A DNA stretch of 62,927 nt, the filler included, from Asterionella formosa (lineage: Eukaryota), in the NCBI GenBank assembly GCA_002256025.1. It is 5 parts of 5 records of this genome, joined end to end, with 100 filler letters (N's around TTAATTAATTAA, not from the genome) between each part and the next. Parts side by side here need not be neighbours in the genome. Positions count along the whole stretch, not along the records: positions 37,833 to 50,335 come from NKIB01007471.1; 4 more parts are not named here. One strand, 5' to 3'. Numbering within the stretch: position 1 is the first letter of the stretch; each line of letters begins with the position of its first letter. Positions 749 to 49,482 of the stretch are shown piece after piece. The translations under genes were made by a program, and so were the position numbers. The notes under the pieces are model-generated. The model saw only the letters and a program-made list of their open reading frames with translations, made no database searches and had not been told where the DNA came from.

Positions 749-771
749 CGTCTGCAAATAAAAAGTATCAT
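749..771 (+). repeat. Terminal inverted repeat of transposon copy 1
   Basis: 22/23 identical to the reverse complement of 48577-48599, with similarity continuing about 70 bp inward. It lies exactly where the copia RNase H frame is broken. Confidence 0.8.
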
Positions 772-1199
772 GCATAAAAGGCCAGGGGTACCGTGCAATA
801 ACTGGCGCAGAATTTTTCTGTGCATGATATGCATTTTGTTATTTGTGTTACAGGTACATCTTTTATATATGAATATTTGATAAGCATGTTTATACTTATA
901 ATATTTGATCATATTGTTCTAATAATGATCCATACTGACTCATAACAGTACCCACAAAGTAATCATACAAATACAGTAATTGAGTAACTACAAATCAAGT
1001 AAAAATCACTACTTCTCTTTGAATTTCAATCGCTCTTCTCATGACCATGAATTACTAATTGTATTTACAAGACCATCATTGATTTACCTTCTTAGCTACA
1101 TCCTATATTGTGTATTTGTTCATCTTATAGCCATATCATTACCATCGTATCTCTATGATGTATTTGTCCAAAATATGTGGAAATGGATTGTAAATTAAC

Positions 1200-2264: not shown

Positions 2265-3450
2265 ATAGATCTGAATATCATCAAAATTACCGATACTTAA
2301 TTCGATTTATACAATGTTGTCTGATTTCATTTGTTTTGAAATTACTAGTCTGCAAACATTTCAGTAAGTGATATTAGAATATATACAATGCTGTGTGAGT
2401 TCATTATTTACCACGACCTAATATAGAGGATAAACATAGGTTGTACGACAATTCGTTATGGAGTAATAGTTTATGATATAATTAAGCCCCATCATGGATG
2501 TGACATATACATAAAAAGGGTTAGGGTTAGAATGCGAAGTATGAATATGTACTGCGGTTGTACAAAATTTGGCGTAAAATGATCTTACAATTAGTTGTTT
2601 GTGATCTTAATTCTAGTGTTTGTATTATAGTGGTGTGCAGTAATACATTTTAAAACATGCATTGTTGTAAATAGGGCTCTATTTCATCTACATCTATCAT
2701 GTTCACAAGTAAGGACTGCTAGGAGTACGTAGTAACATGTTAAAGTATTACCTTTTTTGATAGATCTATATCGTTAGACAAAGAAGACTATAGATAGAGA
2801 CGTTCGTTTCTCTTTCCGTTTCTATATTTTTATTGTGAGTTTACTAATCTAGTTTAGGTTGTTCTGTTTGAACAAACAAACGAACTATTCTCCAAATGCT
2901 ATTTGCATTTCTAGAAACATACAATCATAGATAGACCCATGTCTATCTCACACTTACTGATCATAGGTTTTTTAACCATGATCATTCATTTTCAAACTAT
3001 CGGTCTTCCGAAATAGCTTATATTGTCCGGCTCATTATAGTCGAAGTAACAAGGTATAATGTGTGGTTGATGAGAGCTTGATACATCCAAGTTGACTCAT
3101 TCGAATCGTTTGACTCGTTTGACTCCGAGTCCTAATTACGTAGATGAGCTCACTTTAACAGTAACAAGGTACCGGTAGTTATGAACAACTGTGTACATAA
3201 TGTTGAAGGAGATGATATGATGATGTATGTACCTGGAAGTACAATCTTTTTCCAGTTGTGTACATATATATATATATGTATATATACGCACATTATCTCT
3301 ATATCCATAAGTGTGTAAGTAGCTACCGGTATGCTATTTGTCTATTGCAACGGTACTTCTAAGAGCATTTATGATCCCCATTTCCCTTAATTTTTAGCGA
3401 CACTTCATCATATGCTTCTTGTCATTCCTCACCACACCTGTTATACAATC

Positions 3451-5412: not shown

Positions 5413-5478
5413 GAGTAATAACTGTTAATATTAATATTAATATGAATCATTGATCTAATTTATAATAACACCTAGCTA

Positions 5479-8400: not shown

Positions 8401-8950
8401 ATAACATGAGTTCTAATTCGATTGGATGCATGTTTAGTAAATATTTTTTGGGAAGTTGAAATTTAACAGGTCGAGGAATTTTCATAGATTCCTTGGGAAT
8501 GAACCCACTTCGATCTTGGTACTCAGGATAATGCATAGTATCATTATCCAACCCAATAATTTCTGATAATTCTGTTTCCTCTCCACATTGCCTTGATGTA
8601 TTTGAAGTCAATGAGATACTTTCGTCATAGAATGGAAATAACAAATTCTGGTCATCTAATTGTGAAAGAGATTCTTCCGTATGCAAAGTATCAGAAATAA
8701 GAATGTTGGGAAATGAGGAAGAGACACCTGACTTTCCTGTTTCATTTAAATCACTTGATAGTTTACCGCCACAATACATAGTTTGATTGCAAATTCCAGG
8801 AATGCGGTGTTCTTCCAAGCAGTGATGGCACAAACCAAAATCATAAAATTTTCGATTGTTGCAGTTTCGATTGTGAAAGTCAGAGGAAGATTAGTTCTTC
8901 CGAAATTTATAGTTGCATACCGAGCACCAGTTAAAGGTTTGTAAAGCCAT
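5479..8950 (-). pseudogene. Plavaka-family transposase, full length but disrupted
   Basis: ATG at 8950 (MALQTFNWCSVC..., premature TAA at 8893-8891). N-terminal Cys/His clusters. Core motifs SLTVFSDGS...HPFLLTILNL..EERKK..AWQLVSLLP, GDTEEH..ICG, TPFEVLYQLLLGLLKY, SGLTALSKMSGQE, and C-terminal WFDWIEVNW..PGKL resemble Plavaka transposases as I recall them. Several frameshifts. Ends ...WKSIGWEQKKSSER* at 5479. Confidence 0.75.
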
Positions 8951-9091
8951 TGTTTGGGCAAAAATGCAAAATCAAAATAGAGTAGAGGGATCGATTTGAG
9001 GGCAGCGGTATGAATAGAAATGAATATAAAGAAATGTCCAAGTATCGCTTTTTCGTCAATAAATACCGAATACCGGTATATAAGTGTATAT

Positions 9092-10930
9092 TCAATAATG
9101 TGTCATGCAGTACATAGTACAAAGCACTGCAACCTTATTATGCAACACTAACCTTTTAAATTTTAGCTTTTCTTTAATCTGCAATGCGTTGTCAACTGCA
9201 TTGACAAAGAGAGAAAATTTCTCATTGATAGCAACATCACTTGAGAGTCCAGATGATACTGACTCCCAATTGAAAGGGGAAATTTCAATTGTTGCATCAC
9301 CACGGTGACGGTAGGCGTCAACTTCCTTTTCATTCAAGAAATTGCAAGGGAATTTTCCAAATGTTTCATTCAACATTTTCAATTCCATAAAACTATTCTG
9401 CACAACTTTCTTTATACAGAAGGCAACTACAGCTTTTTCAATTTGCACCTTCTCCTTCTTGGTAAGAACCTTCGATGATTTTTTAGACCTAACGGTTCCA
9501 AGGCAAAAAAATTATCAATCATCTTGACATGAGGTACTTTCGACGGAAAGCCCGCATGATCTGATGATACTACCATGCCGTCCAATTGCTTCCAATTGCA
9601 GTTCTCTAGACGAAATCCAAAACATTTGGTTTCACCATTTGTTTCCAATTGAAGTAGACTTTCTAAAAGTTTCATAACAGTGAATGGTCCACAGGACCAT
9701 CCAGTATCACCTTCTGGCTGGTGTAATAGTGAGTCATGAATAGATGCCATAAAAACTTGCAATGGAGCTTTTGTAGAATGATAGAAACTCTCACTCTGAA
9801 TGACCTGTTGCGGCTTATAAGCCTGGCTTGGAAGGTAGGCATCCCATGATGATGCTATTTCTTTTCCCTTTTACATCCAGGGATGATGCAATATTTACGG
9901 GCAAGGTGAGACACTTGATCGAGATGTTCTTGGACTATGGCTGCTTCTGCTGGATCGCGGATTTGACATATCCCTTCCTTAAGACCAAATATGTAATGAA
10001 CAAAATGATTATTTCCACAAGATGATCTCTTTCAGTACACTATAATCACATGTAATTAATGAGAGAATCTTTTTCAGCTTCTTATGATTCAATAAAAATA
10101 CCATTTCGATCATCCCGGTCATTGGGCATAACGAATTGGGAAAGGTCCAACATTGTCTGGCTGATTATGGTATATTTGTTCTTCAACAGCTTGATCTCTT
10201 CCACAATATCCTGAACAGAAGTTTGATTTTCGAAAACAGGTTGATCTTCAGTAGCATGAACAAAGATTCCTTTATTGTCATTTTGATGTTCCTCTTCATG
10301 ACCAATCCTTGACGAATTATTATTGTTTATAATCTTTTCATTAATTGATATTGTTGTCTTTCTTGAAAGGACAACAGAATCTATCAAACCAGCACCTAAG
10401 TCACCATCATCTCCATCGATCAGGTAATCGGGGGTAGGGTTGTCGACATTTTCTGTTTCAGAATGCTTAGCCTCTAAATGTAGAGATACCCTTGTCTCGT
10501 CACGGGACACATGGTGCATTATCATGAGAGATCGACTGGCTTCTTCTAGATCTGGTGAACGATCAATAAGAATAGTCCGCTGCTTTTCATTTGAAAAACA
10601 AATGGTTCAATTGTTTTGAATTCGCCGTATAAGATGACCTCTCTGATAAATGCATTGGGGCAACTATGGAATTAACATATGAACTCTTTTTTCTGGAGAA
10701 TTGTAAACCTTCTCGAAATCATCAGATTTGGAAGGAAACAGACATGTGCTCTCAACCGATTCAATGAGTCGTTTCAATTTCTTCCTCGATGTTAAAACGT
10801 CTTCTAGTGTAAACCCAAATGGACCATCCTCTTTGTCATTCCAAATGTTCTTGTTGTGTTCCATGATATCAACTTTGATTGGTATTGAAATGACGAGTGA
10901 TGCAGTATGGTTACGTGAAATGATAAACAA
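9092..10930 (-). pseudogene. Transposon gene B: Ulp1/SENP-like (clan CE) cysteine protease-domain protein, disrupted (start approximate)
   Basis: NNHFVHYIFGLKEGICQIRDP (His..Asp, +17) followed by LHQPEGDTGWSCGPF (Gln..Cys). Homologous to 12619-13679 and 41817-43835. Confidence 0.65.
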
Positions 10931-11599
10931 TGCAATGAAGCAAACGGAGTTCGATTACTATCATTGATGTGATGGGAAGGCAACAGCAGCGGCCACAGCA
11001 GCAGTATAATTGCATTTGCTTGCACCGATGGTACCGCGGTACATCATGCATGCTATTCTATGTTGGTATTAACCGCTATAGCATTACATTCATCAAATTA
11101 TTTATTTTGACGTAATGATAGAGATGATAATAACATCTTATTATTTTAAAATTATTTAGTTATATATATTAGAAATATTAGCAAGAACATTTTATTATAT
11201 GTGCATTTATTTGACCTAATAAATGTGATCAAACTATCATAGGTTTACTTACGAGTGATTGTGAGTATGTGATAATGAATTATAAGTTAACTGTCGTAAT
11301 CATTCGATAATATGTTAGTAACGGTACGATCTCTTTTGAGTGTACAGATCCCTACCTCACCTCGTTTGTACAAGATCGTGTTATAGCCCCCCCCCCCATC
11401 AAGTATAGGTATCTCACCTGGTTTGTACAAGACATGTTATTGCATACACAACATCACCTATAGGTACTGGTACCAAAGTCACCTTGCTTGTTTGTACGAG
11501 AAGAACGTGTGATTGTTGCGTACCAGGTAACGGTACTCTCCGCCACTCCCTCATCTTAACTCTATCCCTGTGATTAACATTATTTAAATTCAAATCAAT

Positions 11600-11845
11600 C
11601 CTACACAGTACGCGCGCTTACTTACAAAAATATCAGTGCAACAAATATACAGCACTGGGAGGTATGGCACACTCCGTAATTCCTCGCTACGTGGAAAATT
11701 CCTTATGTGTATCGTTAACAGACCACGCTGTTTTTTTTCAAATATCTTGCAAAGTTCTAGTCGCGCGTTCTTTTGCAAAGTTCGCGTACTTTTTGCGAAG
11801 TTCGCGAGGTTCGCGTACTTCTTGAAAAGTACGCGCGACTACCAT
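11600..11845. repeat. Short direct/inverted repeat cluster (AAGTTCGCG / GTACGCGCG), likely a transposon subterminal region
   Basis: Several agttcgcg(tactt) units at about 11775-11820, with agtacgcgcg at about 11607 and 11828. CpG-rich within AT-rich DNA. Confidence 0.5.
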
Positions 11846-12285
11846 TTCGTCGAATCGAGTTTGAGGTCTGATCAGGCATTTAACATCCACGGGCAATAAC
11901 ATTGCTCATCATCAGACATCTACCGGACACTGACGCTGATTTTCGTAGAGATGTTCGGACAGTAGGCCGGTTTTCAGCCAAAGTCTGAACTTCCGTTCAT
12001 TCCCATTTGATAATTTAAAACGGTATATCTAGTACTACTATGTTGAACTTGGAGTGAAGTTTGATCATTTGAGGAAAATACCGGACGAACGGCCATTTTT
12101 TTCTTGTAGCTGTTTTCTCGTGTCATTTTACATATTAAGACTTTAAACTGGTCATTGATTTAATTTCTATTTGTCAACAAAATAAATAATATATTTTCCA
12201 TTTGTAAGTCAGACATGTAGTTTGAAAACGATATATTAAACAAATAAAAGATTTAATCACTAAATATTATCCAAATATACTACAA

Positions 12286-12518
12286 CTAAAGTAGACCAGC
12301 TTTGTATCCAATACTGGCTCAGGTCTTTGTGATCAACGACACAGTTACCTTGGCCCATGGAGCCTCCACCCATTGCGCAACATTATCCCTCATAACTTTT
12401 TTATTTTCTATGTTTTGAATCATAAAATTCTCCCATGCAGCCTGCACATAGCCTTTGAATGGCTTGTTGACGCCCACATCCAGTACTTGAGCGAAGCTGG
12501 GATGTGTAGCCAGGGGTT
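12286..12518 (-). mobile_element. pogo-like (DDE_1, Tc1/mariner superfamily) transposase C-terminal fragment, cut by the contig end
   Basis: Minus strand reads PGYTSQL/QVLDVGVNKPFKGYVQAAWENFM...VAQWVEAPWAKVTVSLITKT*ASIGY, containing the T..LQ.LDVG.NKPFK motif. One frameshift and one stop. Confidence 0.8.
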
Positions 12519-12618: not shown

Positions 12619-13679
12619 TCCACTTCATCATGACAGTAACTATGTGCTAATTGTGTATTGCAAAAGATCAGATGAGGAGGAAAACAACCATTTTGTGCAT
12701 TATCTTTTTGCTATAAATGATGGATTATGTCAAGTCCGTGATCCAGGAAAAGATGCAAGTGTGGATGAAAATTATGATCAAGTATTTCACCTTGCCCGTA
12801 AGTACTGCATCATCCCTGGATGCTGCAGACAATTGTAATTGTTTCGCACCAATACAGGATATCTTCCACAAGAATACCATACACCTGAAGAAATTGGTTT
12901 ATCGGAATCTTTCTATACTGGCACCAAAGCACGGCGCCATTGCAGATCATTGTGGCCACTGAACATGATTCCATGTTATTTCAACCAGAAGATGACAGCC
13001 AGTGGATGGTCACGTGGACCATTTACAATTGTGAAAGTGTTGGAAACTCTATTGCAACTAGAAAGGAATGGCAAAACCAAATTTCTTGGCAAACGGGCAC
13101 AATTCCGTTTGGAGACGGAGTCCTGGAAAGTTTTAAAACTTCAGCTGGTAGCAACAGATCGAGCAGACGATTTGTTATCTGTTACATCTGACACACCAAC
13201 CAAGTCAACCTACTTTCATCGTGGAACAGTTTGGCCTCAAGCGACAACGACAAACATTCGTGAGGATCTGTTTCAGTTGGAAATAACTGTTCTTCAATTT
13301 TGTATCGACAAAATTTTGAGCTGCCTCGTATTTAGATTTTAAAATGTTGAACGAAGTATTTGGACGAGTTCCTTACAATTCTTCTTTCAAGAAGGATGAT
13401 GTTGTCTACGTAAAATCCATGATGATTAAACAAAGGAATGAAAAAGTTGCTCCCTTCAAATGGTATAATCATGCACCTCTTGGCCACATTTCTGGATGCA
13501 TAAAAATTGACAGAATGTTGAAAAATAAATTTGTAACTGATGATAGCCCTTCTGGAATCAAATTCAAAAATTTTACAGACTCATATCGAACTGCAGTTGA
13601 AAAGTGGAGAAGCAAAATTTCGGACGAAACGAGAAGGACCATCTTAGGTTCTTTGGGAGTGAAAAAGTACAAATATTAA
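12619..13679 (+). pseudogene. Gene B (Ulp1-like protease) C-terminal part, frameshifted
   Basis: NNHFVHYLFAINDGLCQVRDP...LFQPEDDS/GWSRGPF. The putative catalytic Cys is Arg in this copy. Confidence 0.7.
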
Positions 13680-14868
13680 AGCGTGAATGCCCACCTAATA
13701 AAGTCATCAATATCCATAGTCTGGAAGTTATATTCTGTTTGACCAGCTGGTGTGTCACGAATTATCTTAGATTTTTAAAATTGAAACATATTTGATAAGA
13801 ATAAAATCACCAAATCAAAACATCATGCTTTGGGAGGCACCATCTCCCTGCAAGAACTTACCTAAGGTTCCTTTAAACTGATTATTCAATACATTCTGAC
13901 ATTCTCTCAACCTTTTAATGCACATGCCACCAAATGTTGATTTGATGTAATCTAAACGTGCCTTGTTGCTATGTTCAATGATCTGATTCATCGGAAGTAG
14001 TGTATCAGAACCATTCCACATGAAATCGGCAAGCTCTGGGTCACTCTCCACATCTTTGCCCAACTCCGGTTTTACAGTGTATAACCGAGTTAGGCAACAT
14101 TGGGCAACCCAATCCTGTTTGTGATTGGAAATGCCTTTCATACTACTTGGACCAGATGGGGCGGGATGTTTGATTCTCTTTTTGGACCAGAAAAAAGCAC
14201 ATTAGATTGACATTCTTTTTAACAGTACCTGCAATTCACGAACTATAACCTCAAACTTACATGTTCACAGCAAAACTTCTTGGTTTTGAAAATAAAACTC
14301 ACAACCTTTGTTACAATTGATGGTTCAATTTTAGCTAAGCGGCCGGGAACGACGTTCTGATAAGACTGCTGAAATTGAAGAGTCTTGATAAACTCGTACG
14401 GACGAGTTTTAAACCGAATTACGACCTTTGTAGTGATTGAGTTCATTGACCAATTGATAATATCCTTTGGCAAGTGCAAAGTGTTTTTCCCTTAGAGTGT
14501 CATGCACTTGTTGGTCCGAGCAATTAGAAAATTTATGATATGGAACGATGTTGTCCATCTGCATCCGGGAGTTATTAATGGTATTATCGACAGGAGCCAT
14601 TTTTCTTGTAGCAAGCAACAACTGAAGAAGAAACGTCATCATCGCTTTGAGTATCAATTATAGGATCCTGTGTAGCTGATGGTGTCCCCATTGAAGATGG
14701 GGTAGTAACCACACTAACTCCCTGTCGCCGATTGGGTTCCTTTGGATAATTGCCGATTCGCTTTTTCTTCGTTAACTCATTTTGGTACTTGCTTCTTTGT
14801 TCCATACCGGCAGTGTTTGCCACATGTTGCTTGTTTCCATGAACCTCTTTATGGCTTTTTGAAGACAT
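13680..14868 (-). pseudogene. Gene A, 3'-truncated
   Basis: MSSKSHKEVHG...LNHYKGRNSV...KTKKFCCEH|gtaagt...ESDPELADFMWNGSD...GGMCIK. Confidence 0.7.
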
Positions 14869-15476
14869 TGCACTACTAGATAAATGTTCTTGTAAGTTTG
14901 ATGATCATAAAATCAGGTGTTGCAAGCTACAATGAAATGAATCATCAGCCACTACATATAATTTTTTACGCTGTCTAGTAGATACGATACCATGAGAACC
15001 GTGTTTGAGTAATAGCATATCTTGCTTTCAATTTTACGATTATACGATCCTGAAACTATGATGATTTAGTGTCCCGTTGCAGCAGCAACAGTCCTGAACA
15101 TATGGTGTTCTGTTGCTCGCTTACTACCCCGACTACTGCCAGTATATCACTTTCTACCTGCTACTGGTGGTACTCTGTATATAAATGATAAAATGTTATG
15201 ATCATATGATGTACACATGAAGAACTCCCGCAAAAAAGGGGCTTAAATAATTAGTTACTAAAATCCTTCCGTATCAACAATTATTATACAAATGGGTTGT
15301 GATTTACACCAATTGAATTGTCTATATAATCAGTTCCAACGGACGTAGAAAATATTGATGCAAACAAATTTCAGAAACAGTGCTGGTACACGAAGTCGTG
15401 GAAAACAATTGACATATTGTGCATTGAATATTTTCGAATTATATATATATATGCGAATATGATCATCTCAACAATA

Positions 15477-15688
15477 CCAGACGTGCCATATTGAGAGTGC
15501 CTTTGAATTATATTAATGTACGACTCTTAATATATTTATATATTTACAAATTTATAACTCTATATATGGCAAATTTATTTGACCAGACGTGCCATATTGA
15601 GAGTGCCTTTTAATTTCATAAATATACGACTCTTAATATATTTATATATTTACAAATTTTATAACTATATACATGGCAAATATATTTG
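15477..15688 (+). repeat. ~106-bp tandem duplication
   Basis: ccagacgtgccatattgagagtgccttt...atggcaaat.tatttga occurs twice here and once in the paralogous region (~47237-47345). Confidence 0.9.
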
Positions 15689-17289
15689 AAATCGTTCTGT
15701 CATGTTAACAAACAATGCCTGCTTCGTGAAAAGAAATATTGTAGTACAGCATTTGACAAGGAAAGTTTACGCAATAACGAAAAACATTGTGGCTTCGACA
15801 CATTCCGCCTTCAAAGGATGGAGTATGTTTAAGGTAATGAAGCCATCAATGTGGTACATGGATGACAATCAATGGGAGGACAACAGCAAATAGTAAACTA
15901 AATGCATGTTTCCTTTCTTCTCAGTTGATTCAATATTAAAAAGCTCATTTCGCTTGTTGGGGAGCACCAATGTAAAACAAAACAAAATTGGTAAGCGCTC
16001 TTGTCATTGGACCTATTCACTACTGTTGGAACATAACTGATGGACACGTTTTCCTTCTTTCAAAGTTAAGCTTACGAAAATGAATCGGTAAGTTTTATTC
16101 GATAAAATTGGATACCTGAAACTTACTTATTCAAGAATTTACTGACAATTTACTATTACAGACATATGCATCAGTTGCTTTGATTTTTGGTAAGTGAAGC
16201 AAACAAGAGGATACTTTGGAATGGCGTGTTGTTGTGTCAGTGTAACATGTTTAGCTAACAAGTCATTCCTTTGCATTGTTACTGTAATTGCATTGGACAA
16301 CAAAACTAATCAAACAACAGAATAGTCGGCGAGTACAGAGTGACACTAATAGCAGGGAAAGAGACGCAACATTAGTAGGCAGTGCCTGACACATGATTCA
16401 GAATAGAGGAAGAAAAGGGCAAGACAGGAATATACATTGAGACAAGTGGAGAGGAGAGAAACATTCCTTGGGTAGCTATCGAAACAGAAATATCATTGCT
16501 AAATGTGTTAATTAAATTAAGATCCATTCCAACCCTTTTTGAACATTCCTTGTGATTAGTAGTATTATGATCATGTTTAAGATAGATATACAATGAAACA
16601 ATTCACATGATGGCATAGAGTTTAGCTGATTTTAGGATGCGTTGTAGTAATAATTTATATCTGGCAATCACGAGAAGAGAAAATAAAATGAGAAGGTTTA
16701 TGATATTGATAAGAAATGTTGTTGATTGATGGAAGCAATGTTGCGCTCAGGTAGCTCCAATAGGATACCTCGACTGTTAATCAATCATTTGGAAATAACG
16801 GATTAGTGTTTCCAATCACTCTGAGATTAAGGTTCACTAGGTGAACTTGTTTGGTAAATGTAGGTGAAACCTTTCAACATCTGAGATTTACTATCAATCA
16901 GTAAACTCTCTTTCCTGCATGGAATTTACCATTCAACATTTTTCTGTACCAAATGTCTGAAGGCCAATAGACTTGATACATTATTGTGCAGTGTTCCATC
17001 CATCAAGTACAACGACACTAGGGTCATGTTTTTTTCATTTCAAAGACGCGAGCAAATGTTGGAATCAGGAATCAAGAATCTATCTGTGTTTCAACTCGGG
17101 CAGCATATGTTAAACATTTATATTGGGTACCGGTAACCTGGTATGTATATACGGAATATTATCATTTCTTATTTATAACCGCTGAGGGTTTTACTAAAAC
17201 CCTAACAAGATGATGCATGTGTAAAATTCAACCAATATAATAATACTAACATATTGTTTTGCCGAATCAATAATCACAGAACAACGACA

Positions 17290-34462: not shown

Positions 34463-34502
34463 TACATACATACATACATACATACATACATACATACATA
34501 CA
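34463..34502 (+). repeat. (TACA)10 microsatellite
   Basis: Read directly from the sequence. Confidence 0.95.
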
Positions 34503-38338: not shown

Positions 38339-38399
38339 TACGTCACTTTACACATAAATTCGAAAAAGTGCCGTAAACGGCGTCTTAGATGTAGGACCA

Positions 38400-39703
38400 G
38401 CATGCATTTTGGTCACCCTTGAGTGGGTAATCCTTGTCTGGAATATGTCTAGTTTTTCCCATCCAACAAGTTGTGTTGGATATTGCTTTGTGATCACAAT
38501 TTTATGTGGCACCCTGCGAGAGCGCTATTTACAACATTAGGTTCAGTATTCCCCCCATTGCCTGTTTGATAGGAGAGTTAGTCGATACATTGCTCCAAGT
38601 TTTCGAGTTTTGTCTCTTTTGCAGGTCAGAAAGCCGCTCTTGTTTCGTATCGTCATGCTATTGTCCTCGAAGATCACTTGATTACCCTTGTCAATCATTC
38701 TTGAGACACTGATGATGTTCTGCTTGAACTCCAGTGCATGAAGCACATCGGTCAGTTTCAAAGGTTTTCCTTTGTCCATAGTGGTCGTCTGTCAGGGTCA
38801 CGGTACCAGAGACAGTTGATTCTATCTCAGTTCCATTCCCTACCATGACCGTTTCACTCACTTGTTTGTGCGATGTGAACAGTAGAACCGCTGTCTAACA
38901 ACCAGCGATTTCTGACGTCACGAGCGAGGTTGACTTCCTCGTTGTAACTAATTTCGACACACATGGTGGGTATGAACATTCCTTGCTGGGTAGATGTAGT
39001 CATGTTATTCTCTTCGCTTTTATTATGTTTAGATGCGCTGTTTCTGGTGCACTCACTTGCGTAGCGTCCCATGCGTTGGCACTTGAAACACTTGATCTTT
39101 TTCCTCTTTTCTTTCTGCTCAGGAGTGAGCTCCTTCTTGTTGGCACTATCGCCCTTGCTTGCTGCGACAGTCAGCTGCCTTGTGGCCATACTTGCCACAC
39201 TTACAACAGTCACCTTTGAACCTCCCTTTCGTGTAGAAGGCATGTTCACTCTTGTTCTTGTTAGTCGTTTTGAAATCATCCCGGAAATATAGATCGTAGT
39301 AATCGCGGATGTCTGTCATAATCTCGTCGACCATTAGCGTGTTGTGCGCCAGGCCAAACCTTCCTACTACCAAACTCTTGTAGCTACCTAGTAGTTTGTT
39401 GATCATGTGTGCCACATGGGCACCATCCGAAACAGCGGATCTCGTATTGCCCAATCATTCCCGGATAAAATCCAACTCCGAATACCAGCTGTCGGGTTCT
39501 CATTTTCCCTTAGAGTGCACTTCGTCCATTGGTGGGATAAGGCAACGGCATTTGCCATGTTGCCTGACTTAAACGTGTCCCATGCTTTTTTAGCATTGCC
39601 ATTAGGAAACTCGGCACTTCTTGCATTATTTACGTGTCCGAATGGTCCACTCTGGCATGCCATCATCAAACTTGCGTAAGCAACTGTGTTGTTCCTTCGG
39701 ATG
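38400..39703 (-). mobile_element. Ty1/copia gag-protease remnant (distal part of the element split by transposon copy 3)
   Basis: AYASLMMAC...PNGNAKKAWD, zinc knuckles FKGDCCKCGKYGHKAADC and CFKCQRMGRYASEC, protease WLLDSGSTVHI, LTDVLH...NIISVS. Confidence 0.9.
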
Positions 39704-40265
39704 CGTCTGCAAATAAAAACTATCATATTTCCATGAAGCATCATAGGATTGTGATCATCTCATCATAATATTTCGTTATATCATCTAATAATTTGGATAA
39801 ATGCCTTTGTAATTTAAATAGTAACCCTTTTGACTACATATATTTAATTATTATATGTATTGTTTCTATTTGATTCCTGTATTCGAATTTCTTGGTAGGA
39901 TAATGTAACAGTTCAAGTAATGTAATTTGGCTCATCATTTCCATCCGTCATCACTCCGATTTTTGCAACAACAACGAAATACTAGCGATGACAAGCGGAA
40001 TGAATGTTTGCGATAACGTCTTCAATTTGTTGGTCAAGTGATCTTTATATCTTCGAGTAATTGTCATGTGCAGTGAACCTTTGTTCATAATCATTCAATT
40101 AAGAGTTTACAGGAGAGAAGAAATCATTCGAACTCGTAATGGTTCCGCACACAGCGCACAAAGTATATCCGTTTCGTCCACTTCAGCATGACAATCTCGC
40201 CAATCAACCCGTAAACAAACACATTCTACTTGTTCTCGTTGACATTTTCAATTCTCACATGATAC

Positions 40266-40352
40266 TACATCTACTATTGAGATTCAGCATAGAAGGAGAT
40301 ACGAAAATTTTACATCTACTATTGAGATTCAGCATAGAAGGAGATACGAAAA
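40266..40352 (+). repeat. 45-bp tandem duplication, followed by a diverged ~200-250-bp duplication (40470-40900)
   Basis: tacatctactattgagattcagcatagaaggagatacgaaaa at 40266 and 40311. Confidence 0.9.
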
Positions 40353-41816
40353 TGTGCATTACAGACTACTGTCCACAGCATAGCTATAGTTATAGAATGA
40401 TTCTGATTAGAATGTATTTCATTTTCATATCGCTCGCTCGTTTCTGCATTTGGCATACTGAACTTGAATTAACTATTGAACTTTTCCGCATCTTTGATAC
40501 CATCAAGAGAGCGAAAGCAAGTGGCTCTTTTCATTGTTGTTTGCTCGTAGGAAAAATTTGATATCTGTATCGTCATTTGCTTGTTGGAATTGTCCGTTGC
40601 CTCAAACCTGCTAGGCGTGTGCGTACACACACTGTCGACTTGTTTTCATTGGTATGTTGTTCTTGTATTCACTGTTGAACTTGTCCGCATCTTTGATAAC
40701 ATCAATAGAGCGACAAGTGGGTTTCTTCATTGTTATTTGCTCCTGGAAAAGTCTGTGTCCGTGTCATCCTCATCAATAGAGAGACAAGTTCTTTCGCTGG
40801 AAAAATTGGTACTCGTGGTATCATCATTCGCTCGTTGGAACCACTGTCCGTTTCCTCAAACCTGATTAGCGTGTGGGTATGTGCACTGTCGACTTTTGTA
40901 CATTACAGGCGGAGTGACTTGTTATCTACTAAATTACGTGATAACAATATACCCCGTAGTACGATGCATAATACAGTTGCTTCCCAATCATCTCATCATG
41001 ATTGATAAGATGATAATGTGATATCATGATAGGGTTACATCGATGCATACATCACCAAAGTATGATACGTAATAATGAATAAAGTACATTACATAGCTAT
41101 GATGCAGCGATCATGAAACTGTGATGATTTTTTAAAATGTATATGGTATAATTTTGATCAATATATGATTATGTAAAAATAGTACAATGACAATAAAGTA
41201 CGATATAATATGTACGTAAGTGTTATCGATACATCACAGAAAATAAATAAATAAATCATAATTATGTTACTTAATATAGAAATTCGCTTTTTAATGTATA
41301 CAGTTAAAGTCAACACTTAATATGATAGTATTATACAGTGGATAGGATCTAAGTATACGGATGCATTGATATGTACATCACTATAATATGATTTGTGATA
41401 TGGATTGATGCATATCACATACCGGTATCCTCAACAACCAGCCATCATGTTCATTGTCATGTCGTCTTTCCTTGTTTTAGCTATATATATGCCAGCATGT
41501 GTATTGTGTAAACACTACACTTGCGGAACATGCATATTACACTGTGCTCTGTTCAACAATTACTACACTCGGTTACCATCACACCAGTTCAACCTCCATA
41601 AGCGCCGCAATAAGCTCCGCGTTTCCCTTCCACTGTTTTACATCATTGTCTTCTGGCCCTTTGACAACTTGCTTTCCAAATGGCATCTAACGGATTTCAT
41701 GGAAAGGATCAGTCAAACAAGAAACGAGACTTACTTCCATTGTTTACACTACACGACTTTATGTTTTCGGAAAAGAAGATGAAGAAACTTATGAAATCAA
41801 TCATTCGAAGGTTCCT

Positions 41817-43835
41817 TTGAATACACTCAAAGATCAAATGAATTTTGAACAGATTCATAATACTCCAGAAGAAATAATGAAGCATGCCGATACAATAGTG
41901 GCTGAGATTGAAAAGAAGGAAAGATTGCTTTCGAAGAGGAAACCCAAACAGTTGGTCTTTGTAAATGAAGACTCTATTCGTACAGAGTCACAGTTCCACC
42001 ATCCATTGTCGTATTTTGCTCATTCAACCGAAATCGCTGATAATGAAGAAGAACTCAGTGATTCTCATTCATTTGATGAACAAATTCATGCGATGAATGA
42101 AAATATGGGCGGAAATGTGGCAGACAACACTTCAGATGAAAAGTTGCAAAACCAAGAAACATATCTCACTATCCGTCCAGAACATCAAGATGAACATCAT
42201 GAAAGCAGAGAAACTATTGCATTTATAAAAGAACAGATATTCAAGAAAAAGTCTGAGCTAGATCAAGACCTCGAATTCAAGAAGATCAATGCAGATAGAG
42301 ATGTGATGCTGGCTAAGGCAGTTGATGCTCTGAATAGGGAACGAAGTCAGAAACACAAAATTGAATCTTTTTCCAAATCATACATGGAAGAAAAAGAATT
42401 TCTTTGTAAAATCATTGAAAACAATCCAGAAGGCAGCTATTTTTGTGAAAAGTCGGCATGTGAAATGTGTAGAGTTATTATGCCAAAGCAAACGGCATTT
42501 TCCTTGAGTTTGCCGAAATCGCATGGACAACTAAAATTGCGGAAAGAGTTGTACACTCGTACCCCGCAAGATATATGCAATTACGCCTCTGTATTTTATG
42601 GAGTCAAAGTTATCAAAAAATCATCTTCAGATTTTAAAGATCTTGCATATTGGGACCTTGAAACAATTACCTCTATGATCCATTATATGATTCATGAACT
42701 TCATCCAACTTGTGTAAAGGTTATCTTTGATTTGGATGAGGACCCAGAAAAGGTTAATAAAGATCCATATATATACCAAGGTGATTGTCATCCACTTCAT
42801 CACGAAAGTAACTATGTGCTAATTGTTTATTGCAAAAGATCAGATGAGGAGGAGGAAAACAACCATTTTGTGCATTATCTTTTTGCTATAAATGATGGAT
42901 TATGTCAAGTCCATGACCCAGGAAAAGATGCAAATGTGGATGACATTATGATCAAGTATTTCACCTTGCCCGTAAGTACTGCATCATCACTGGATGCAGA
43001 AAAGGATTGGAATTGTTATGCACCGATACAGGATATCTTCCACAAGAATCCCATATACCTGAAGCAATTTGGTTCTCGGAATCTTTCTATACTGACACCA
43101 AAGCACCATTGCAGATTAGTATGGCCACTGAACATTATTCCATGTTATTTCAACCAGAAGATGACAGTGGATGGTCATGTGGACCTTTTACAATTGTGAA
43201 AGTGTTGGAAACTCTATTGCAACAAGAAAGGAATGGCAAAACCAAATTTCTTGGCAAACGGCCACATTTCCGTTTGGAGACTAAGTCCTGGAAAGCTTTA
43301 AAACGTCAGGTGGCAGCAATAGATCGAACAGACGATTTCTTATCCATTACATCTGACCCACCAACCAAGTCAACATACTTTCATCTTGGAACAGTTGGGC
43401 CTCAAGTGACAACGACAAATTTTTGTGAGGATATGTTTCAGTTGGACATAACTGTTCTTCAATTTTGTATCGACAAAATTTTGAGCTCCTATTTAGATTT
43501 AAAAATTTTGAACGAAGTATTTGGACGAGTTTCTTGCAACTCTTCTTTTCAAGAAGGATGAAGTTGTCTACGAAAAATCCGTGATACAACAAAGTAATGA
43601 CAAACTTGCTCCCTTCAAATGGTATAATCATGCACCTCTTGGACAAATTTCTGGATGCATCACAATTGACAAAAACTTGAAAGAAAATTTTGTATCTGAT
43701 GATAGCCCTTTTGGAATCAACTTGAAGAAGTTTGCAGACTCATATCGAACTGCAGTTGAAAAGTGGAGAAGCAAAATTTCGGACGAAACGAAAAGGACCA
43801 TCTTAGGTTCTTTGGGAGTGAAAAAGAACAAATAA
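41817..43835 (+). pseudogene. Gene B (Ulp1-like protease), two frameshifts; true start probably further upstream
   Basis: Acidic/coiled-coil N-terminal part, CxxxxCxxC, WDLETITSMI, NNHFVHYLFAINDGLCQVHDP, LFQPEDDSGWSCGPF. Confidence 0.7.
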
Positions 43836-43956
43836 TGGACCATTGGATAATCATTTATCTAAGGAAATTGTAGTTTGTGAAAACCTTCATGATAACCAAT
43901 TTAGTATGCGAAACTATATTGTTACCATTATCATTTATATTACTCTTTTATTTTTA

Positions 43957-44516
43957 TCAACGTTCGCTTGTTAGTTTTTGGTCCCACCCGATTGATTTCC
44001 ATGAATTACGTGGAGGAATGGCAACATTAAAATTATCTTTCCGTATCTGTTCCAAAACTTCTTGCGGTTTCAGAGACTTCCTTGATTCCTGTGGTTTCAA
44101 AGCAGGAACAACAAATGCTGCCGAAAGTATGTTATGAAATTCAACAACGCTCAATTCTGTTGTATCAATGCATAAGTTGTCTCCTCTTGCCAAAAACAAA
44201 CGTTTATGAATTTTCATGTCAGGTGAACTTGGATAGGACACATAATCTCTTCTTGTCTAATCTCCCTAAATGCTGCAGCAGCTACACTGCTGCAATCATT
44301 AACTTCTTTCCTTGAATGATTAGATGCACTACTGCAATACATAGTTTCACTAGTATGTATTACAGGAACTCGATGTTCTTGCATGCAATGTCGACAGTGA
44401 CCATATGCATAAAAAACACGGTTGCTACAATTTCCATTGTGAGACTCAGATGGGGATTTGTTCTTCCGAAATTTGTAGTTACACAGAAAACACCATTGCA
44501 ATGTGCGTAAAGACAT
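43957..44516 (-). pseudogene. Internally deleted Plavaka transposase (N-terminus fused to C-terminus)
   Basis: MSLRTLQWCFLCNYKFRKN...HCRHCMQEHR matches the copy 1 N-terminus. TTELSVVEF.NILSAAFVVPALKPQE...WKSIGW..K..SER* matches its C-terminus. About 2.9 kb of core is missing. Confidence 0.85.
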
Positions 44517-44826
44517 TGCAAATTGCAATTGATGAACAAGTCAGGATATGAAAAGTATAGAATGAAAATGAATTAATATATAAAAATAAATTGAGCGCCA
44601 CTTCGAACAGGCTGTGCTGGAAAATACAGAGTCGTGAAATTATCACTCCACCATAGTAGTAAAAATGGAGGTATACCGCTACATGTAGTACAGGCGGCAC
44701 TAATAGTAAATGTAGTATAGAGCAGAATCAATGTTTTCCTATCATCTATGATATGGCTTGCGTTGTAGAAGTCTCACACTTACTATAATTATTATCATGT
44801 AACTACTAAGTATGCATTGGATTCTA

Positions 44827-46578
44827 TTAGATCCATTCAAAATCAACATTGTCATCAATGTCCCGTTGATTAATGCGGTCATTGTAATCAATATTCTTTT
44901 CAGGAACATTTGGTTGAAGTGATACAACAAATTGATGCATATCCTCTTTACTTACGTTGGGAAATGAGAAGTATGAGTGTGGGTAGATGATATATGTTCC
45001 GAAAGTAGCAATTCCACTAGGATTCCTTCCATATTCAGATCGATTCTTTTGTGAAAGTCCAGTATAGATTTCCTTATACTAATATACGAGTAAATCATCA
45101 GTCCATTGATCAGTAAGACCATTTGAAACTGAACTTTCTTCCCTCACACTTTTTTGATACGTGGTTTCCCACCAATGTCGACAAAATCGGTAGAATGATG
45201 AATTTCGTTCTCTGAAATTTCATGGGTATCTGGATTGAAACCCAAATATTTTTGTTGCAATCGGAATTTTCCTTTCAACACCAAGACGCAAAAGGCTTCT
45301 GTACTGGCATTGATCAGCAAACCAACAAAACATGATTGCAATTCACACTGTGCCCGAAGACTTAGTTGAATTTTGGCTTGGTCACACCAGATTTGTCTAC
45401 TGTTAAAAATGGTTTTCCACGGCTTGTCCTGCCTATAAAATAAACTGGAGCAAGGACGCACATCACGCCAGACTTGGCATCCTTGGCTTCCCCTGTCAAT
45501 TTCCCTTGACTGCGCAAAACGATAAAGCGTGAACACCACCTAATAAAGTCATCAATATCCATAGTCTGGAAGTTATATTTTGTTAAACCAGCTGGTGTGT
45601 CGTGAATTATGTTAGCATTTTGAAATTGAAACATATTTGATAAGAATATAATCACCGACTCAAAGCATCATGCTTTCAGAGCATCTCCCGCCCTGCAAGA
45701 ACTTACCTAAGATTCCTTTAAATTGATTATTCAATACATTCTGACATTCTCTAAACTTTTTAATGCACATGCCACCTAATGTTGATTTGATGTAATCTAA
45801 ACGTGCCTTGTTGATACATTCAAGGGTCTGATTCATCGGAAGTAGTGCATCAGAACCATTCCATATGTAATCGGCAAGCTCTGGGTCACTCTCCAATTCT
45901 TTGCCTAACCCCGGTTTCACTGTGTATAGCCGAGTTAGGCAGGTCAGCATGGGGCAAACCAATCCAGTTTTTGATTGGAAATGCCTTTCATACTACTTGG
46001 ACCAGATAGGCAGGGCGGGATGTTTGATTCTCTTTTGGGACCAGAAAAAAGCACATTAGATTGATATTCTGTTTTATAGTACGTGCAATTCACAAACTAT
46101 AACATCAAACTTACATGTTCACAGCGAAACTTCTTGGTCTTGAAAACAAATAAAACTCAAAAACTTTGTGACAACTGATGGTTCATTTTTAGCTAAGCGA
46201 GAACGACATTCTGATAAGGCTGCTGAAATTGCAGATTCTTGATAACCTCGTATGGACGAGTTTTGAACCGAATTACGACCTTTGTAGTGATTGAGTTCAT
46301 TGACCAATTGATAATATCCTTCGGCAAGTGCAAAATGTTTTTCCCTCAGTTTGTCATGTACTTGTTGGTCCGTGCGATTAGAGAATGTATGAAATGGTAC
46401 CATGTCGTCCATCTGCATCCGGGAGTTTTCCCAATCGCCGATTGGGTTGCTTTGGATAATCGCCTATTCGCTTTTTCTTTGTAAAGTCATTTTGGAACTT
46501 GCTTCTTTGTTCCATACCGGCAGTATTTGCCACATGTCGCTATTTTCCATGAACCTCTTTATGGTTTCTTGAAGACAT
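44827..46578 (-). pseudogene. Gene A, near full length, disrupted
   Basis: Same motifs and intron positions as 3451-5412. Confidence 0.72.
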
Positions 46579-46619
46579 TGTACTACTTGATAACTGTTGT
46601 CGTTGTCTTCCTTGAAGTT

Positions 46620-46900
46620 CGATGATCTTAAATTCATTTACTGTCCCTCTGCAGTAGCTGCAGTCATAGACATATGGTGTTCTGTTGCTTGCTTATTACT
46701 CCGACTATTGGTTTTTATTTTTACGATCATACGATCCTAATACTATGATGATTTTCTGTCCCACTGCAGTAGCAACAGTCCTGAACATATGGTGTTCTAT
46801 TGGTTTTTAGTTTAACGATCATACGATCCTAAAACTATGATGATTTACTGTCCCACTGCAGTAGCAACAGTCCTGAACATACGGTGTTCTGTTGCTAGTT
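46620..46900 (+). repeat. Three diverged ~90-110-bp tandem units
   Basis: tgtccc.ctgcagtagc..cagtc...acata.ggtgttct occurs three times here and once in the paralog (~15036-15115). Confidence 0.8.
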
Positions 46901-47357
46901 TACTACTCCGACTACCCCCAGTATATCACTTACTACCTGCTACTGGTACTCTGTATATATACATGATATATTGTTATTGTAATATTATGTACCGGTACAC
47001 ATGAAGAGCTCCCAACCAAAAAAGGGGCTTGAACAATTTGCTACCAAAACCCTTGCGGTTATGACTTACACTAATTGAATGGTCTAAATAATTAGTTTCA
47101 ACGGACGTTGAAAATATCGATGCAAACAAATTTCAAAAAAACAGTACCGGTACACATAGTCATGGAAAACAATGGACATTTAGTGCATTGAGTATTTTCG
47201 AATTATGTATATGCGAGTATGATCAACTCAACCATACCAGATGTTCCATATCGAGAGCGCCTTTGAATTTCATAAATGTATAACACTTCATATATATACA
47301 CATTTACAAATTTTATTACTCTATTCATGGCATATGTATATTTGAAATCGTTTTGTC

Positions 47358-48150
47358 ATGTTAACAAACAATGCATGCTGCTTCATGAAAAGATTGGTCG
47401 TAGTAAAGCATATGACAATAAGAAAAGAAAGTTTACTCAATTTATAACGAAAAACATTGTGACTTCGAGCGACACATTGCGCATTCGAAGGATGGAGAAA
47501 GTTTAAGGTAATGAAGCCATCAATGTGGTACTTGGTTGACAATCATTGGGAGACAGGACAACAACAAATTGTTAACTAAACGCACATTTCCTTTTTTCTC
47601 AGTTGAATCAACAGCTCGTTTCGCTTGTTGGGGAGCACCAATGTAAAACAAAACCAAATTGCGTAAGTGCTGTTGTCGCTCGTTGGACCTATTCACTTCT
47701 TTTGGAACAAAACTAACAAAATGTTTACCTTCTCTCAAAGCTAAGATGACAAAAATGAACCGGTAAGTTTTATTCGACAACATTGGATACCCGAAACTTA
47801 CTTATTCAAGAATTTACTGACAAGTTACTATTACAGACTTATGCATCACTTGCTTTGATTTGGCTGTGGTAAGTGAAGCAAGCGAGAGGATGCAATGGAA
47901 TGGCGTGATGTTGTGTCAGTGTAACATGTCCAGCTAACAAGTCATTCCTTCTCATTGTTATTGTATTTGCATAGGACAATAATACCAATCAAAAAAGGAA
48001 TATTCGACGAGTTCAGAATGACACTAACAGCAGGAAGAGAGACGCAACATTAGTAAGGCATTGCTTGGCACAAGATTCAGAAAAGAGGAAGAAAAGGGTG
48101 GGACAGGAAAAATATACATTGAGCCGAGCAGAGAGAGAAACGTTGGGTCA
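47358..48150 (+). pseudogene. Gene C homolog (also at ~15702-16470); boundaries approximate
   Basis: ATGTTAACAAACAATGC start shared with 15702. Intron 47663-47740 with CTAAC branch site. Confidence 0.4.
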
Positions 48151-48599
48151 CTGGCATGTAAATAGATAGCATTGCTTAATTTGATAGTTAAATTACGATC
48201 CATTTCAATCTATTTTGAACAATGCTTGTGAATAGAATTATGATCATGTTTACGATAGATTTATGATGAAACAATTCACATGATAGCATAGAGTTGAGCT
48301 GGCTTTAGGATACGTTGTAGTTATAATTTACATCGGGCGATCACGAGAAGTGAAAATAATATGAGAAGGTTTATGATATTGATGGGAAATGTTGTTGATC
48401 AGTTTATATACATTGTGTGATGATAATGTTCTTATTATCATAATACTTCAAGGTCGGTAAAATATTAATAAATCATCATAGTTACAAGATACCCTGATCA
48501 TATTTTTGATCCAAAAATTATCATATATACGAAAATCCTGTGCCACTTAGCGTACAATACCCTTGATCCTATATGCATGATACTTTTTATTTGCAGACC

Positions 48600-49215
48600 T
48601 GCATTTCTCGTCAGCATCTGACAAAATGATCGTAGCGCCCTTTAGGTGTTTCTCTCCTCTTGATATTTTGTCACCGTTAAGTATTCCTTGAAAGTTCTTT
48701 AGCACGCATATGTGAGAAACTTCGCTTTCCATATGTGCCATTTAGCATCTTGCCCATTGAATGTCGGCAACCTCACTGACGTGTCTTTGTCACTTCCCGT
48801 CGTTCCTGAGTAGCCTGTGGCCTTCAAAGGTGCGCTTTAAAGCGTGTTGAAAGGTCTCGTACTCCTTCCTGTCTGACGGGTTCCTCTTACGTAGGACTTA
48901 CCTGTTATACCACTAGTATTGTTATCTTCTTTCTGCTGCTAGCCTTTGTGCTAGTTTTCGCTATTGACCTGCCCTACTATGTCAATTCTCACTCTTTCTT
49001 AATTATAAGCTTAAACCAAAACTAAGTTTCAATCCCATTCATTACACTTTGAGAGCCTGTTCTTGGTGTTCCCTTTTTGTTGATGTAAAACTGCTTCTGA
49101 TTGATCTAAGACATCAGTCTTGTTAGCAAGCTTCTGACTAATTGGACTATAGTCGAGTCCACATTCCTTGTGACTCAATATAGCCATTTTGATGCTATAC
49201 CCGGTATTCTTGACA
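48600..49215 (-). mobile_element. Copia LTR (49215->~48845, TG...CA) and gag N-terminus
   Basis: VRLPTFNGQDAKWHIWKAKFLTYAC/KNFQGILNG is a typical copia gag start. The LTR is homologous to 325-601. Confidence 0.8.
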
Positions 49216-49482
49216 TCCTTATCGTCCTCGGTACAAACTCTACCTGGTACTACTAGGGACGCAATAAGAAATGGATAGATTCTCCGGGTTTTCCCGCGCC
49301 AATTACGGTACCGGTACTTTTATGTACCGGTATGCTCATGTTTTCGTCCGAACAAGCAAATTGGTCTTCCGGTATCCATACTGTTACCTATTTGCTTGTA
49401 GTCGTATTGAATCAGTTTCATCCGCGCGGAGTTAGCATCCAGAAACAGGGAGACAGTCATCGAAGCCATCTCAACGACGGAA

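Follow-up and report, generated by a model that had tools for sequence, protein, structure and literature searches.

A probable Plavaka-lineage DNA transposon family with defined, recurring ends and two accessory genes in an Asterionella formosa assembly

Introduction

Plavaka transposons of Agaricomycotina fungi were reportedly described by Iyer et al. in 2014. These elements are grouped with EnSpm/CACTA, Mirage, Chapaev and Transib in the CMCT clade, whose target-site duplications (TSDs) measure 2–5 bp, and the sections of Kojima 2025 that treat them distinguish PlavakaA, with a 2-bp TSD and TGT..ACA termini, from PlavakaB, with a 2-3-bp TSD and CATCA..TGATG termini, and report C(2)C and H(3-4)H motifs for Plavaka (PMC12730594). 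According to passages of the respective reports, Plavaka is also present in Auxenochlorella (PMC12633428) and Amoebidium (10.1101/2024.01.08.574619), and EnSpm is listed for the diatom Cyclotella cryptica as one of its DNA-transposon superfamilies (PMC7466962). In the literature searched no description of a Plavaka element from diatoms was found, the Plavaka passage of PMC12633428 being concerned with a green alga. Here, a family of this kind is described from a stretch of 62,927 bases of Asterionella formosa (assembly GCA_002256025.1), referred to as the window, which consists of five ~12.5-kb pieces with runs of N between them (1-12518, 12619-25128, 25229-37732, 37833-50335 and 50436-62927). 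Homologous element DNA is common to pieces 1, 2 and 4, which hold copy 1, copy 2 and copy 3, respectively, the latter being the main element. We read these copies, with a probability of about 0.8, as members of a cut-and-paste DNA transposon family of the Plavaka lineage that encodes a transposase and two further proteins, the products of gene A and gene B.

The presence of additional genes beside a transposase has precedents both within and outside Plavaka. In maize En/Spm, a CACTA element, the TnpD transposase is accompanied by TnpA, which binds subterminal repeats, and MULE and CACTA elements bearing ULP1 are said, as cited elsewhere under Hoen 2006 and van Leeuwen 2007, to exist. Published passages name ULP1 domains as cargo of grapevine CACTA families ('Cactavine') and of plant MULEs (KAONASHI) (PMC2528002) and C48 peptidases as cargo of oomycete Cryptons (PMC3212892). 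In the red alga Bostrychia, Plavaka elements of 17-19 kb with three accessory genes account for ~36% of the genome, as stated in parts of a recent preprint (10.1101/2025.02.11.637652). An earlier note on this DNA, made from the sequence alone, had recorded no earlier description of the ends or cargo of such elements in diatoms. The novelty was overstated, because the ends and TSDs of fungal Plavaka (PMC12730594) and the accessory genes of red-algal Plavaka (10.1101/2025.02.11.637652) were published in 2025, as passages of both reports make clear. Plavaka elements with accessory genes were already known; the present family departs from them in its uncommon termini and in cargo that has so far not been reported from Plavaka.

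Boundaries of the element

The complete copy of the family, copy 3, occupies positions 39704..48599 (8,896 bp) and is delimited by end repeats, by contig ends in public sequencing runs and by the frame of its host that is restored on excision. Its left terminal inverted repeat (TIR; 39704..39726, +), recovered by pattern search, reads CGTCTGCAAATAAAAACTATCAT and is followed by a subterminal sequence of the 'left' type described below, while the right TIR lies at 48577..48599 (-); the 23-bp TIR of the family is 5'-CGTCTGCAAATAAAAASTATCAT. In the window, the 23-bp end pattern has exactly three sites, at 749 (+), 39704 (+) and 48577-48599 (-), none of 100 shuffled sequences matched it, and allowing up to 6 substitutions revealed no extra site. 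With the boundary marked by a slash, the ends of copy 3 read ..GGATG/CGTCTGC...GCAGACC/TGCATT.. and the end of copy 1 reads ..CTCA/CGTCTGC. The earlier note was therefore right in assigning to copy 3 23-bp TIRs with TG on both flanks, and to copy 1 the same TIR at 749, next to CA.

The repeat also recurs at element boundaries elsewhere, in public metagenomic data. Parts of the stretch are present in 24 runs from 16 studies, mostly labelled 'freshwater metagenome', with the best-holding run, X1, labelled 'algae metagenome'. A scan of metagenome contigs with the repeat yielded nine contigs, in all of which the base before GTCTGC is C and element homology starts at the same base, the outer flanks being mutually unrelated. 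Eleven of 12 termini (the nine metagenome loci and the three in the window) start CGTCTGCAAAT; the first base of the right TIR of copy 3 is G instead of C. Two types of ends can be distinguished among the 12, a 'left' type (..AAAAACTATCATATTTCC, n=5), which is found in contigs L001, L002, L004 and L009, and a 'right' type (..AAAAAGTATCATGCATA, n=7), found in L003, L005, L006, L007 and L008, at window position 749 and at the right end of copy 3. A second data set consists of contigs from four public runs, X1 and the RNA runs X18 and X21 among them, which were aligned to piece 4 only. In X1, 33 contigs leave the element exactly at 39704 and 51 at 48598 and continue into dissimilar sequence (84 contig ends); the consensus agreement of the flanks beyond these ends is 0.41 and 0.38, respectively, too low to inform on target preference. 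Since the nine metagenome contigs and the X1 contig ends are independent of each other, 39704 and 48599 can be regarded as the true boundaries of the element. The end pattern had no match in collections of prokaryote genomes or viral contigs.

The dinucleotides that flank the 12 termini are AG, TA, GT, AA, AT, TA, GG, TC, CA, CA, TG and CA, a variety that points to the absence of a fixed target sequence. The idea that TG/CA is such a fixed target is thus not supported.

Insertion site and target-site duplication

The TG dinucleotides on either side of copy 3 (39702..39703 on the left, 48600-48601 on the right) form a putative 2-bp TSD, seen in this one element. When the element is excised together with exactly 2 bp, an open frame of 146 aa runs over the junction, with 46 aa upstream and 100 aa downstream of it, whereas excision with 0, 1, 3 or 4 bp produces frames of 102-113 aa that contain merely 2-13 aa from upstream of the junction. 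The earlier proposal that excision restores the frame of the host gag, and that a 2-bp TSD is implied, is thereby supported, and for this single complete copy a TSD of 2 bp is the interpretation that fits best. Two considerations count against it. The TSD is based on one complete copy, in which a 2-bp match arises by chance in 1 of 16 cases, and the host gag is itself decayed, which makes the restoration of its frame soft evidence. It could thus be argued that TG/TG is a coincidence and that the family produces no TSD or one of another length, all the more as the G at the right terminus means that the boundary there could be off by one. This is nonetheless unlikely, because the long frame over the junction is restored by removal of 2 bp only, the element begins with the same C at 11 of 12 termini, and 2 bp is also the TSD length given for PlavakaA in the passages available from PMC12730594. 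The joint 39703->48602, which would represent an allele with an empty site, is not among the 15 joints listed, 294 more existing beyond these, and this result is uninformative either way.

The host of copy 3 is a Copia-like retrotransposon with gag zinc knuckles and the start of pol. The downstream half of its interrupted frame is located at 38546..39703 (-) and the upstream half at 48602-48836, from where a stretch resembling a leader or long terminal repeat (LTR) extends to ~49319. Its Pfam matches are weak (two zf-CCHC at E 0.03-0.05 and Pol_BBD at E 2.7e-5), and the Pfam gag profiles had no match to the frames that flank copy 3. The copy-1 flank at 327-603 and the copy-3 flank at 48950-49217 are 73% identical over ~290 bp, both copies lying in related repeats, and the copy-1 flank at 388-747 (-), without a match in Pfam, looks like the C-terminal part of a Copia pol with an LTR behind it. 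In L007 (positions 1-1999, read in the direction of the end repeat), the flank is 84% identical to the copy-1 gene B region (window 4447-4263); it is therefore the inside of another copy, which indicates a nested insertion of the element into itself. Insertions into other repeats thus recur in this family, as seen in the Copia-like gag that hosts copy 3, in the related flanks of copies 1 and 3 and in L007.

The transposase and its lineage

Assignment to the Plavaka lineage is based on the transposase of copy 1, a protein of ~1,150 aa that is spread over several frames with one in-frame stop at 5503..8965 (-), as delimited by Pfam, phmmer and tblastn. The open reading frame (ORF) at 7637-8890 (-) matches the Plavaka family PF18759 with 39.4 bits, above the cut-off of 26.3 (E 5.5e-10, profile positions 45-196 of 325), which bears out the suggestion that the protein repaired from 8950->5479 is a Plavaka transposase. 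The remaining transposase ORFs of copy 1 matched no Pfam family at E<=0.01, so that Plavaka is the sole family matched. A phmmer search of 1.84 billion representative proteins returned 129 relatives at E<=1e-3, mostly fragments of ~70-370 aa; 68 of these reached E<=1e-10, and 14 reached E<=1e-30. When 19 of the longer relatives were scanned against Pfam, 15 matched Plavaka, some over nearly the whole profile, and 4 matched nothing. Ten relatives, including full-length proteins (864-1,269 aa), align by tblastn along 8965->5503 in several frames, and the catalytic D, D and E of the relatives P0085 and P0071 have alignable counterparts in copy 1 (in VFSDGS, VVGDTEE and PFEVLY, respectively). Apart from the in-frame stop, the gene contains at least four reading-frame changes. 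These breaks look real and not like assembly noise, since the host genes for TCP-1 and sideroflexins are uninterrupted in the same window, and because the copy-1 transposase is broken in this way, the window contains no autonomous copy.

As far as passages on fungal PlavakaA and PlavakaB describe them, these elements share with the present family a PF18759 transposase, DDE cut-and-paste transposition, short TIRs and the presence of an extra gene in some members. PlavakaA has the 2-bp TSD in common with it as well, and the 2 bp observed, in one copy, fall within the 2-3 bp of Plavaka. The present elements differ in their CGTCTG..CAGACG termini, which take the place of TGT..ACA or CATCA..TGATG, in the absence of the TET/JBP dioxygenase that is cargo of fungal Plavaka, in having an alga as host and in their size of at least 11.8 kb. 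Several points weigh against the Plavaka reading. The CG..CG termini are unlike those of PlavakaA, those of PlavakaB and the CA..TG usual in the clade, no intact transposase of the family was found, the closest database matches in phmmer being fragments of ~70-370 aa, and neither C(2)C nor H(3-4)H was recognised by eye in the alignments, the region concerned lying in a frame-shifted piece of the broken copy-1 gene. The family could instead belong to EnSpm/CACTA proper or to another CMCT lineage, the Pfam match then reflecting general transposase similarity. That match is of moderate strength and covers part of the profile, the termini fit neither Plavaka sublineage, and Kojima 2025, in the passages concerned, classes some fungal families with Plavaka-like transposases as EnSpm (PMC12730594). 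Such a placement is still distinctly unlikely, given that no Pfam family other than Plavaka is matched at E<=0.01, that there is no match to an EnSpm-type profile, that 15 of the 19 long relatives match Plavaka, some over nearly all of it, and that the termini are not CAC..GTG and the TSD is 2 bp, not the 3 bp of EnSpm/CACTA proper. Membership in the Plavaka lineage consequently remains the preferred reading.

Architecture of the three copies

Copy 1 (749..12518) represents a diverged subfamily. It has one end repeat, at 749-771, and runs off the end of the piece after at least 11,770 bp; contig L006 matches its positions 749-1636 at 92% identity. Because copy 1 extends from 749 to 12518 without a second end, the full-length form of the element is at least 11.8 kb, in support of the size of about 12 kb that had been proposed for the autonomous form. 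Copy 2 (12619..16726) belongs to the copy-3 subfamily (80-90% identity) and is cut inside gene A by the piece boundary, so that nothing upstream of gene A is visible there. It lacks the stretch that matches 43835-45522 (the transposase remnant and the 3' part of gene B) as well as the last ~200 bp, and no end repeat is recognisable in it.

Copy 3 is a non-autonomous deletion derivative. Its transposase is reduced to a remnant at 43954..44519 (-), composed of a C-terminal piece (43954-44238) and an N-terminal piece (44315-44519) that match copy-1 positions 5476-5773 and 8749-8953, respectively, over ~490 aligned bp in total. The 2,975 bp between these two matches, which include the whole Plavaka domain and the catalytic core, are replaced by 76 bp in copy 3. 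Every other block shared by the two copies aligns in reverse, but the remnants and their copy-1 counterparts run in the same direction. With respect to genes A and B, the transposase segment therefore has opposite orientations in the copy-1 and copy-3 subfamilies: the arrangement is B-> <-transposase <-A in copy 1 and, in the equivalent orientation, B-> transposase-> <-A in copy 3. Of the earlier statement that three contigs carry the same gene set, the homology of pieces 1, 2 and 4 holds, but copy 3, which had been taken for a transposase-bearing copy, holds an inverted transposase remnant without the catalytic core. The arm to the left of gene A in copy 3 (39704-41690) shares with the copy-1 arm only one match of 35 aa, located at the start of gene A. 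Contig L002, which matches window positions 39704-39836 and 41094-41225, is another internal-deletion derivative and lacks ~1.26 kb of the left arm.

Gene A, a candidate Ulp1-like protease

The product of gene A has ~700 aa, and near its C-terminus is a His/Asp...Gln/Cys motif set. The gene lies in copy 3 at 41691..43832 (+), with frame shifts near 42944 and 43546, and in copy 1 at 9095..10954 (-), with a frame shift near 9870. The 502-aa frame at 41691-43196 and the 205-aa frame at 42944-43558 of copy 3 are the two halves of one gene, because copy 2 reads straight across the shift and because the database proteins P0139 (443 aa, copy-1 type) and P0141 (301 aa, copy-3 type, from a cluster of 176 members) are uninterrupted. 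At 43546, where the reading frame of copy 3 changes next, 25 X1 contigs differ from it by 1 bp, as do both RNA runs. Genes C and A, listed as separate genes in the earlier note, are therefore probably these two frames. Alternatively, C would be situated to the left of A, in which case it would not be visible in copy 2 and would have no counterpart in copy 1. Where four genes, three of them accessory, had been counted, a transposase and two accessory genes are confirmed, and no third accessory gene is. With the giant Plavaka elements of red algae (Bostrychia, Chondrus; PAG1-3), as portrayed in the published passages, the family has in common a transposase with several accessory genes, a size above 10 kb, massive amplification, degeneration of most copies and low expression; it differs from them in having two confirmed accessory genes instead of three. 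In Pfam, no element ORF matches the DNA-methylase (PF01555) or SET domains of PAG2, the protein by which alone the comparison with the PAG cassette was made.

Two segments of gene A are conserved across the subfamilies, which are 54-58% identical overall, namely NNHFVHY..(D/N)P and QPExDxGWSCGPF. Inspected by eye, they conform to the pattern H-x17-(D/N), Q-x8-C, with 17 residues from His to Asp/Asn. The order of these residues and the 17-residue spacing of His and Asp resemble those of Ulp1-type C48 proteases, such as yeast Ulp1. When the C-terminal piece of gene A was compared with the ESM Atlas, 20 of 30 neighbour clusters carried Peptidase_C48, with a top score of 0.93, a lead that lies below the confidence marks. 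From these similarities it is slightly more probable than even odds that the C-terminal part of gene A is an Ulp1-like cysteine protease. A number of results oppose this assignment. The ESM Atlas lead is weak, with a recognition of 2021 (below 2300) and 166 shared features (below 170). The C48 profiles of Pfam gave no match at E<=10 for the window ORFs and P0141 or at E<=1 for P0139, NCBIfam and PHROGs contained no relevant match to gene A, and the best hit of a profile search against the PDB (E 0.063) falls on the non-conserved N-terminus. AlphaFold2 predictions for P0139 and P0141 from 8-row alignments had a mean pLDDT (predicted local distance difference test) of 29.2 and 31.7, respectively, and are unusable as models.

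The contrary view, that gene A is not a protease, that the His/Asp/Gln/Cys set is fortuitous and that the protein has another role, for instance in DNA or chromatin binding, has to be taken seriously and stands somewhat below an even chance. It draws on the failure of every profile method used to detect C48 and of both structure models, on the Asn that P0139 and P0140 have at the position of the expected Asp, and on the distance of ~78 residues from Asp to Gln, which is much longer than in Ulp1. To be set against it are the retention of NNHFVHY, (D/N)P and QPExDxGWSCGPF between such diverged subfamilies, the His-Asp spacing of 17 as in yeast Ulp1, the Peptidase_C48 annotation of two thirds (20/30) of the ESM Atlas neighbours, and the precedent, according to the passages available (PMC2528002, PMC3212892), of CACTA and MULE elements in plants and Cryptons in oomycetes that carry Ulp1-type peptidases. 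What the protease reading of gene A would have in common with these ULP-bearing elements, as they are described there, is a gene with an Ulp1-like protease motif set that stands beside the transposase and is kept across diverged families. The difference is that Pfam C48 is recognisable in those elements and undetected here, which leaves homology unproven, and that the transposase is of another lineage.

Gene B, a spliced orphan

Gene B is a three-exon orphan located at 44830..46641 (-) in copy 3, where it is broken by small indels, and at 3391..5386 (+) in copy 1. Its introns in copy 3, 45592-45706 and 46032-46114, are both of the form GTAAGT..AG when read on the minus strand, and removal of the second leaves the reading frame continuous. 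Both are skipped exactly by a polyA RNA contig of 3,673 nt (X21 record 27), which stems from the same sample as X1. This contig also lacks 43846-44711, a segment without splice signals, and thus comes from a variant without the transposase remnant. The block 45380-44929, which matches copy-1 4859-5308 and was maybe counted separately by the earlier reader, is part of gene B exon 3. A Pfam search at E<=10 returned for gene B solely RecX_HTH1 (E 0.018), so that no family is detectable, none of the TnpA-type profiles in Pfam showed similarity to it, and its ESM Atlas scores were at most 0.77. The sole long database match of gene B, P0142, reads through intron 1 and is not a true protein.

Selection on the accessory genes

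In short local alignments with saturated dS (pS, the proportion of synonymous differences, being ~0.55-0.73 for gene A, gene B exon 2 and the transposase), which limits their weight as support for functional genes, the ratio of nonsynonymous to synonymous substitution rates (dN/dS) between pieces 1 and 4 is 0.15 for gene A (104 codons), 0.28 for gene B exon 2 (46 codons; 0.35 over 79 codons between pieces 1 and 2) and 0.07 and 0.16 for two pieces of the transposase (67 and 40 codons). Within the copy-3 subfamily (piece 2 versus piece 4), the ratio is 1.0-1.45 for gene A (155 and 95 codons) and 0.35-0.64 for gene B (54 and 92 codons). The values between subfamilies are no more than indications of purifying selection on genes A and B and the transposase. 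The overall pattern fits genes that are functional in an active lineage and then undergo neutral decay after insertion, and the claim that the accessory genes are kept across diverged subfamilies finds support in the ratios of 0.15-0.35 for A and B.

A different origin of genes A and B would be the capture of host gene fragments (Pack-type transduplication), in which case they would serve no function in the element. In favour of this are the lack of a family assignment for either gene and the broken state of both in all three window copies; according to passages of PMC2528002, plant CACTA and MULE elements also commonly capture genes. Host capture is however very unlikely, since A and B are kept in two subfamilies near synonymous saturation with a dN/dS of 0.15 and 0.28-0.35, respectively, and since long intact ORFs of gene A exist for both subfamilies (P0139 and P0141). 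Furthermore, canonical introns are removed from gene B in polyA RNA, and no host-like paralogue appeared in word-indexed searches: the only matches of gene A there are P0139-P0141, which are near-identical to copies of the element, and the only match of gene B is P0142, with its unspliced first intron. Genes A and B are thus preferably read as parts of the element.

Abundance, subterminal motifs and internal repeats

The summed contig depth in X1, which is not a copy number, amounts to 990,034-4,349,007 per bin over the element compared with 394-765 over the adjacent RNase HII gene, and in X2 to 41,981-427,488 compared with 128. This contrast indicates that the family is very highly repeated, and it probably makes up a sizeable share of the repeats of the organism.

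In the terminal 400 bp (39704-40103, 48200-48599 and 749-1148), the motif ATCAT/ATGAT, which was picked after inspection of the sequence and so carries less weight, occurs 7, 12 and 7 times, respectively, against an expectation of ~1.7; counts as high as these appeared in no more than 1 of 300 shuffles, and the motif is also present inside the end repeat. Internal direct repeats are found in the left arm at 40266..40904 (45 bp in two copies, with units of ~200-254 bp), in the region of highest RNA-contig depth, and a 92-bp direct repeat in three copies lies upstream of gene B at 46590..46888. The ATCAT/ATGAT motifs and the arm repeats could be binding sites for an element protein, with gene B as the obvious candidate. 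The family would in this respect be similar to maize En/Spm, with which it has in common a related transposase clade, more than one element protein and short motifs repeated in both subterminal regions. Unlike En/Spm, it has no CACTA termini, its TSD is 2 bp and not 3 bp, and its proteins are encoded by separate genes and not by alternative splicing of one transcript. The left-arm segment 40335-41168 shows the highest RNA-contig depth in both RNA runs (1,214-1,883 in X21 and 4,179-7,647 in X18) and has nothing that corresponds to it in copy 1; no ORF in it is convincing. The RNA signal could be due to non-coding transcription or to carry-over of DNA from a very high-copy repeat.

Neighbouring genes

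The other genes of the window fall into generic eukaryotic families in Pfam (RecA, TCP-1, AAA, RNase HII and sideroflexin). A bacterial-type RecA gene is located at 17206-18651 (+), in three frames, and the first of its breaks (a stop at 17587-17589, with ~19 extra residues) resembles a short in-frame intron; the gene is probably nuclear and encodes an organellar RecA. Two sideroflexin paralogues, at 55251-56480 (+) and 60616-61914 (-), lie in opposite orientation with ~4 kb between them (Pfam SFXNs, E 2e-80 and 5e-82).

Concluding remarks

Taken together, the earlier description of a Plavaka-type transposon with defined, recurring ends largely stands, while its gene count, the status of copy 3 and its novelty need correction. 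In the mechanism that we propose, the transposase would recognise the ends and excise the element, which would then reinsert at a 2-bp staggered cut without a fixed target and thereby generate a 2-bp duplication. Copy 3 landed in the gag of a Copia-like retrotransposon and has lost ~3 kb of its transposase gene, the catalytic core among them, so that it could move only if the transposase were supplied in trans. The family seems to be highly amplified in the source organism, with most of the copies seen being decayed. Gene A may encode a protease, and gene B could have a role in DNA binding. A broader proposal, tentative and rather doubtful at present, is that these elements represent a third, undescribed Plavaka sublineage (CG..CG termini, a 2-bp TSD and no fixed target) that reached very high copy numbers in a freshwater alga, in part with the aid of a highly diverged Ulp1-like protease of the deSUMOylase type and a spliced orphan. 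If true, the sublineage would parallel, by convergence, the plant CACTA and MULE elements that bear ULP and the oomycete Cryptons that bear C48, and the removal of SUMO/ubiquitin-like modifiers would be a recurrent strategy of transposons against host silencing.

If the anatomy described here holds genome-wide, a freshwater alga would contribute a well-bounded and very abundant Plavaka lineage with a cargo unlike the TET/JBP genes of fungal and the PAG1-3 genes of red-algal elements, which would strengthen the view that Plavaka transposons regularly carry accessory genes. Should gene A prove to be an Ulp1-like protease, it would be a further independent case of such a protease borne by a transposon, after those of plant CACTA/MULE elements and oomycete Cryptons, and gene B represents a conserved, expressed orphan with a testable function.

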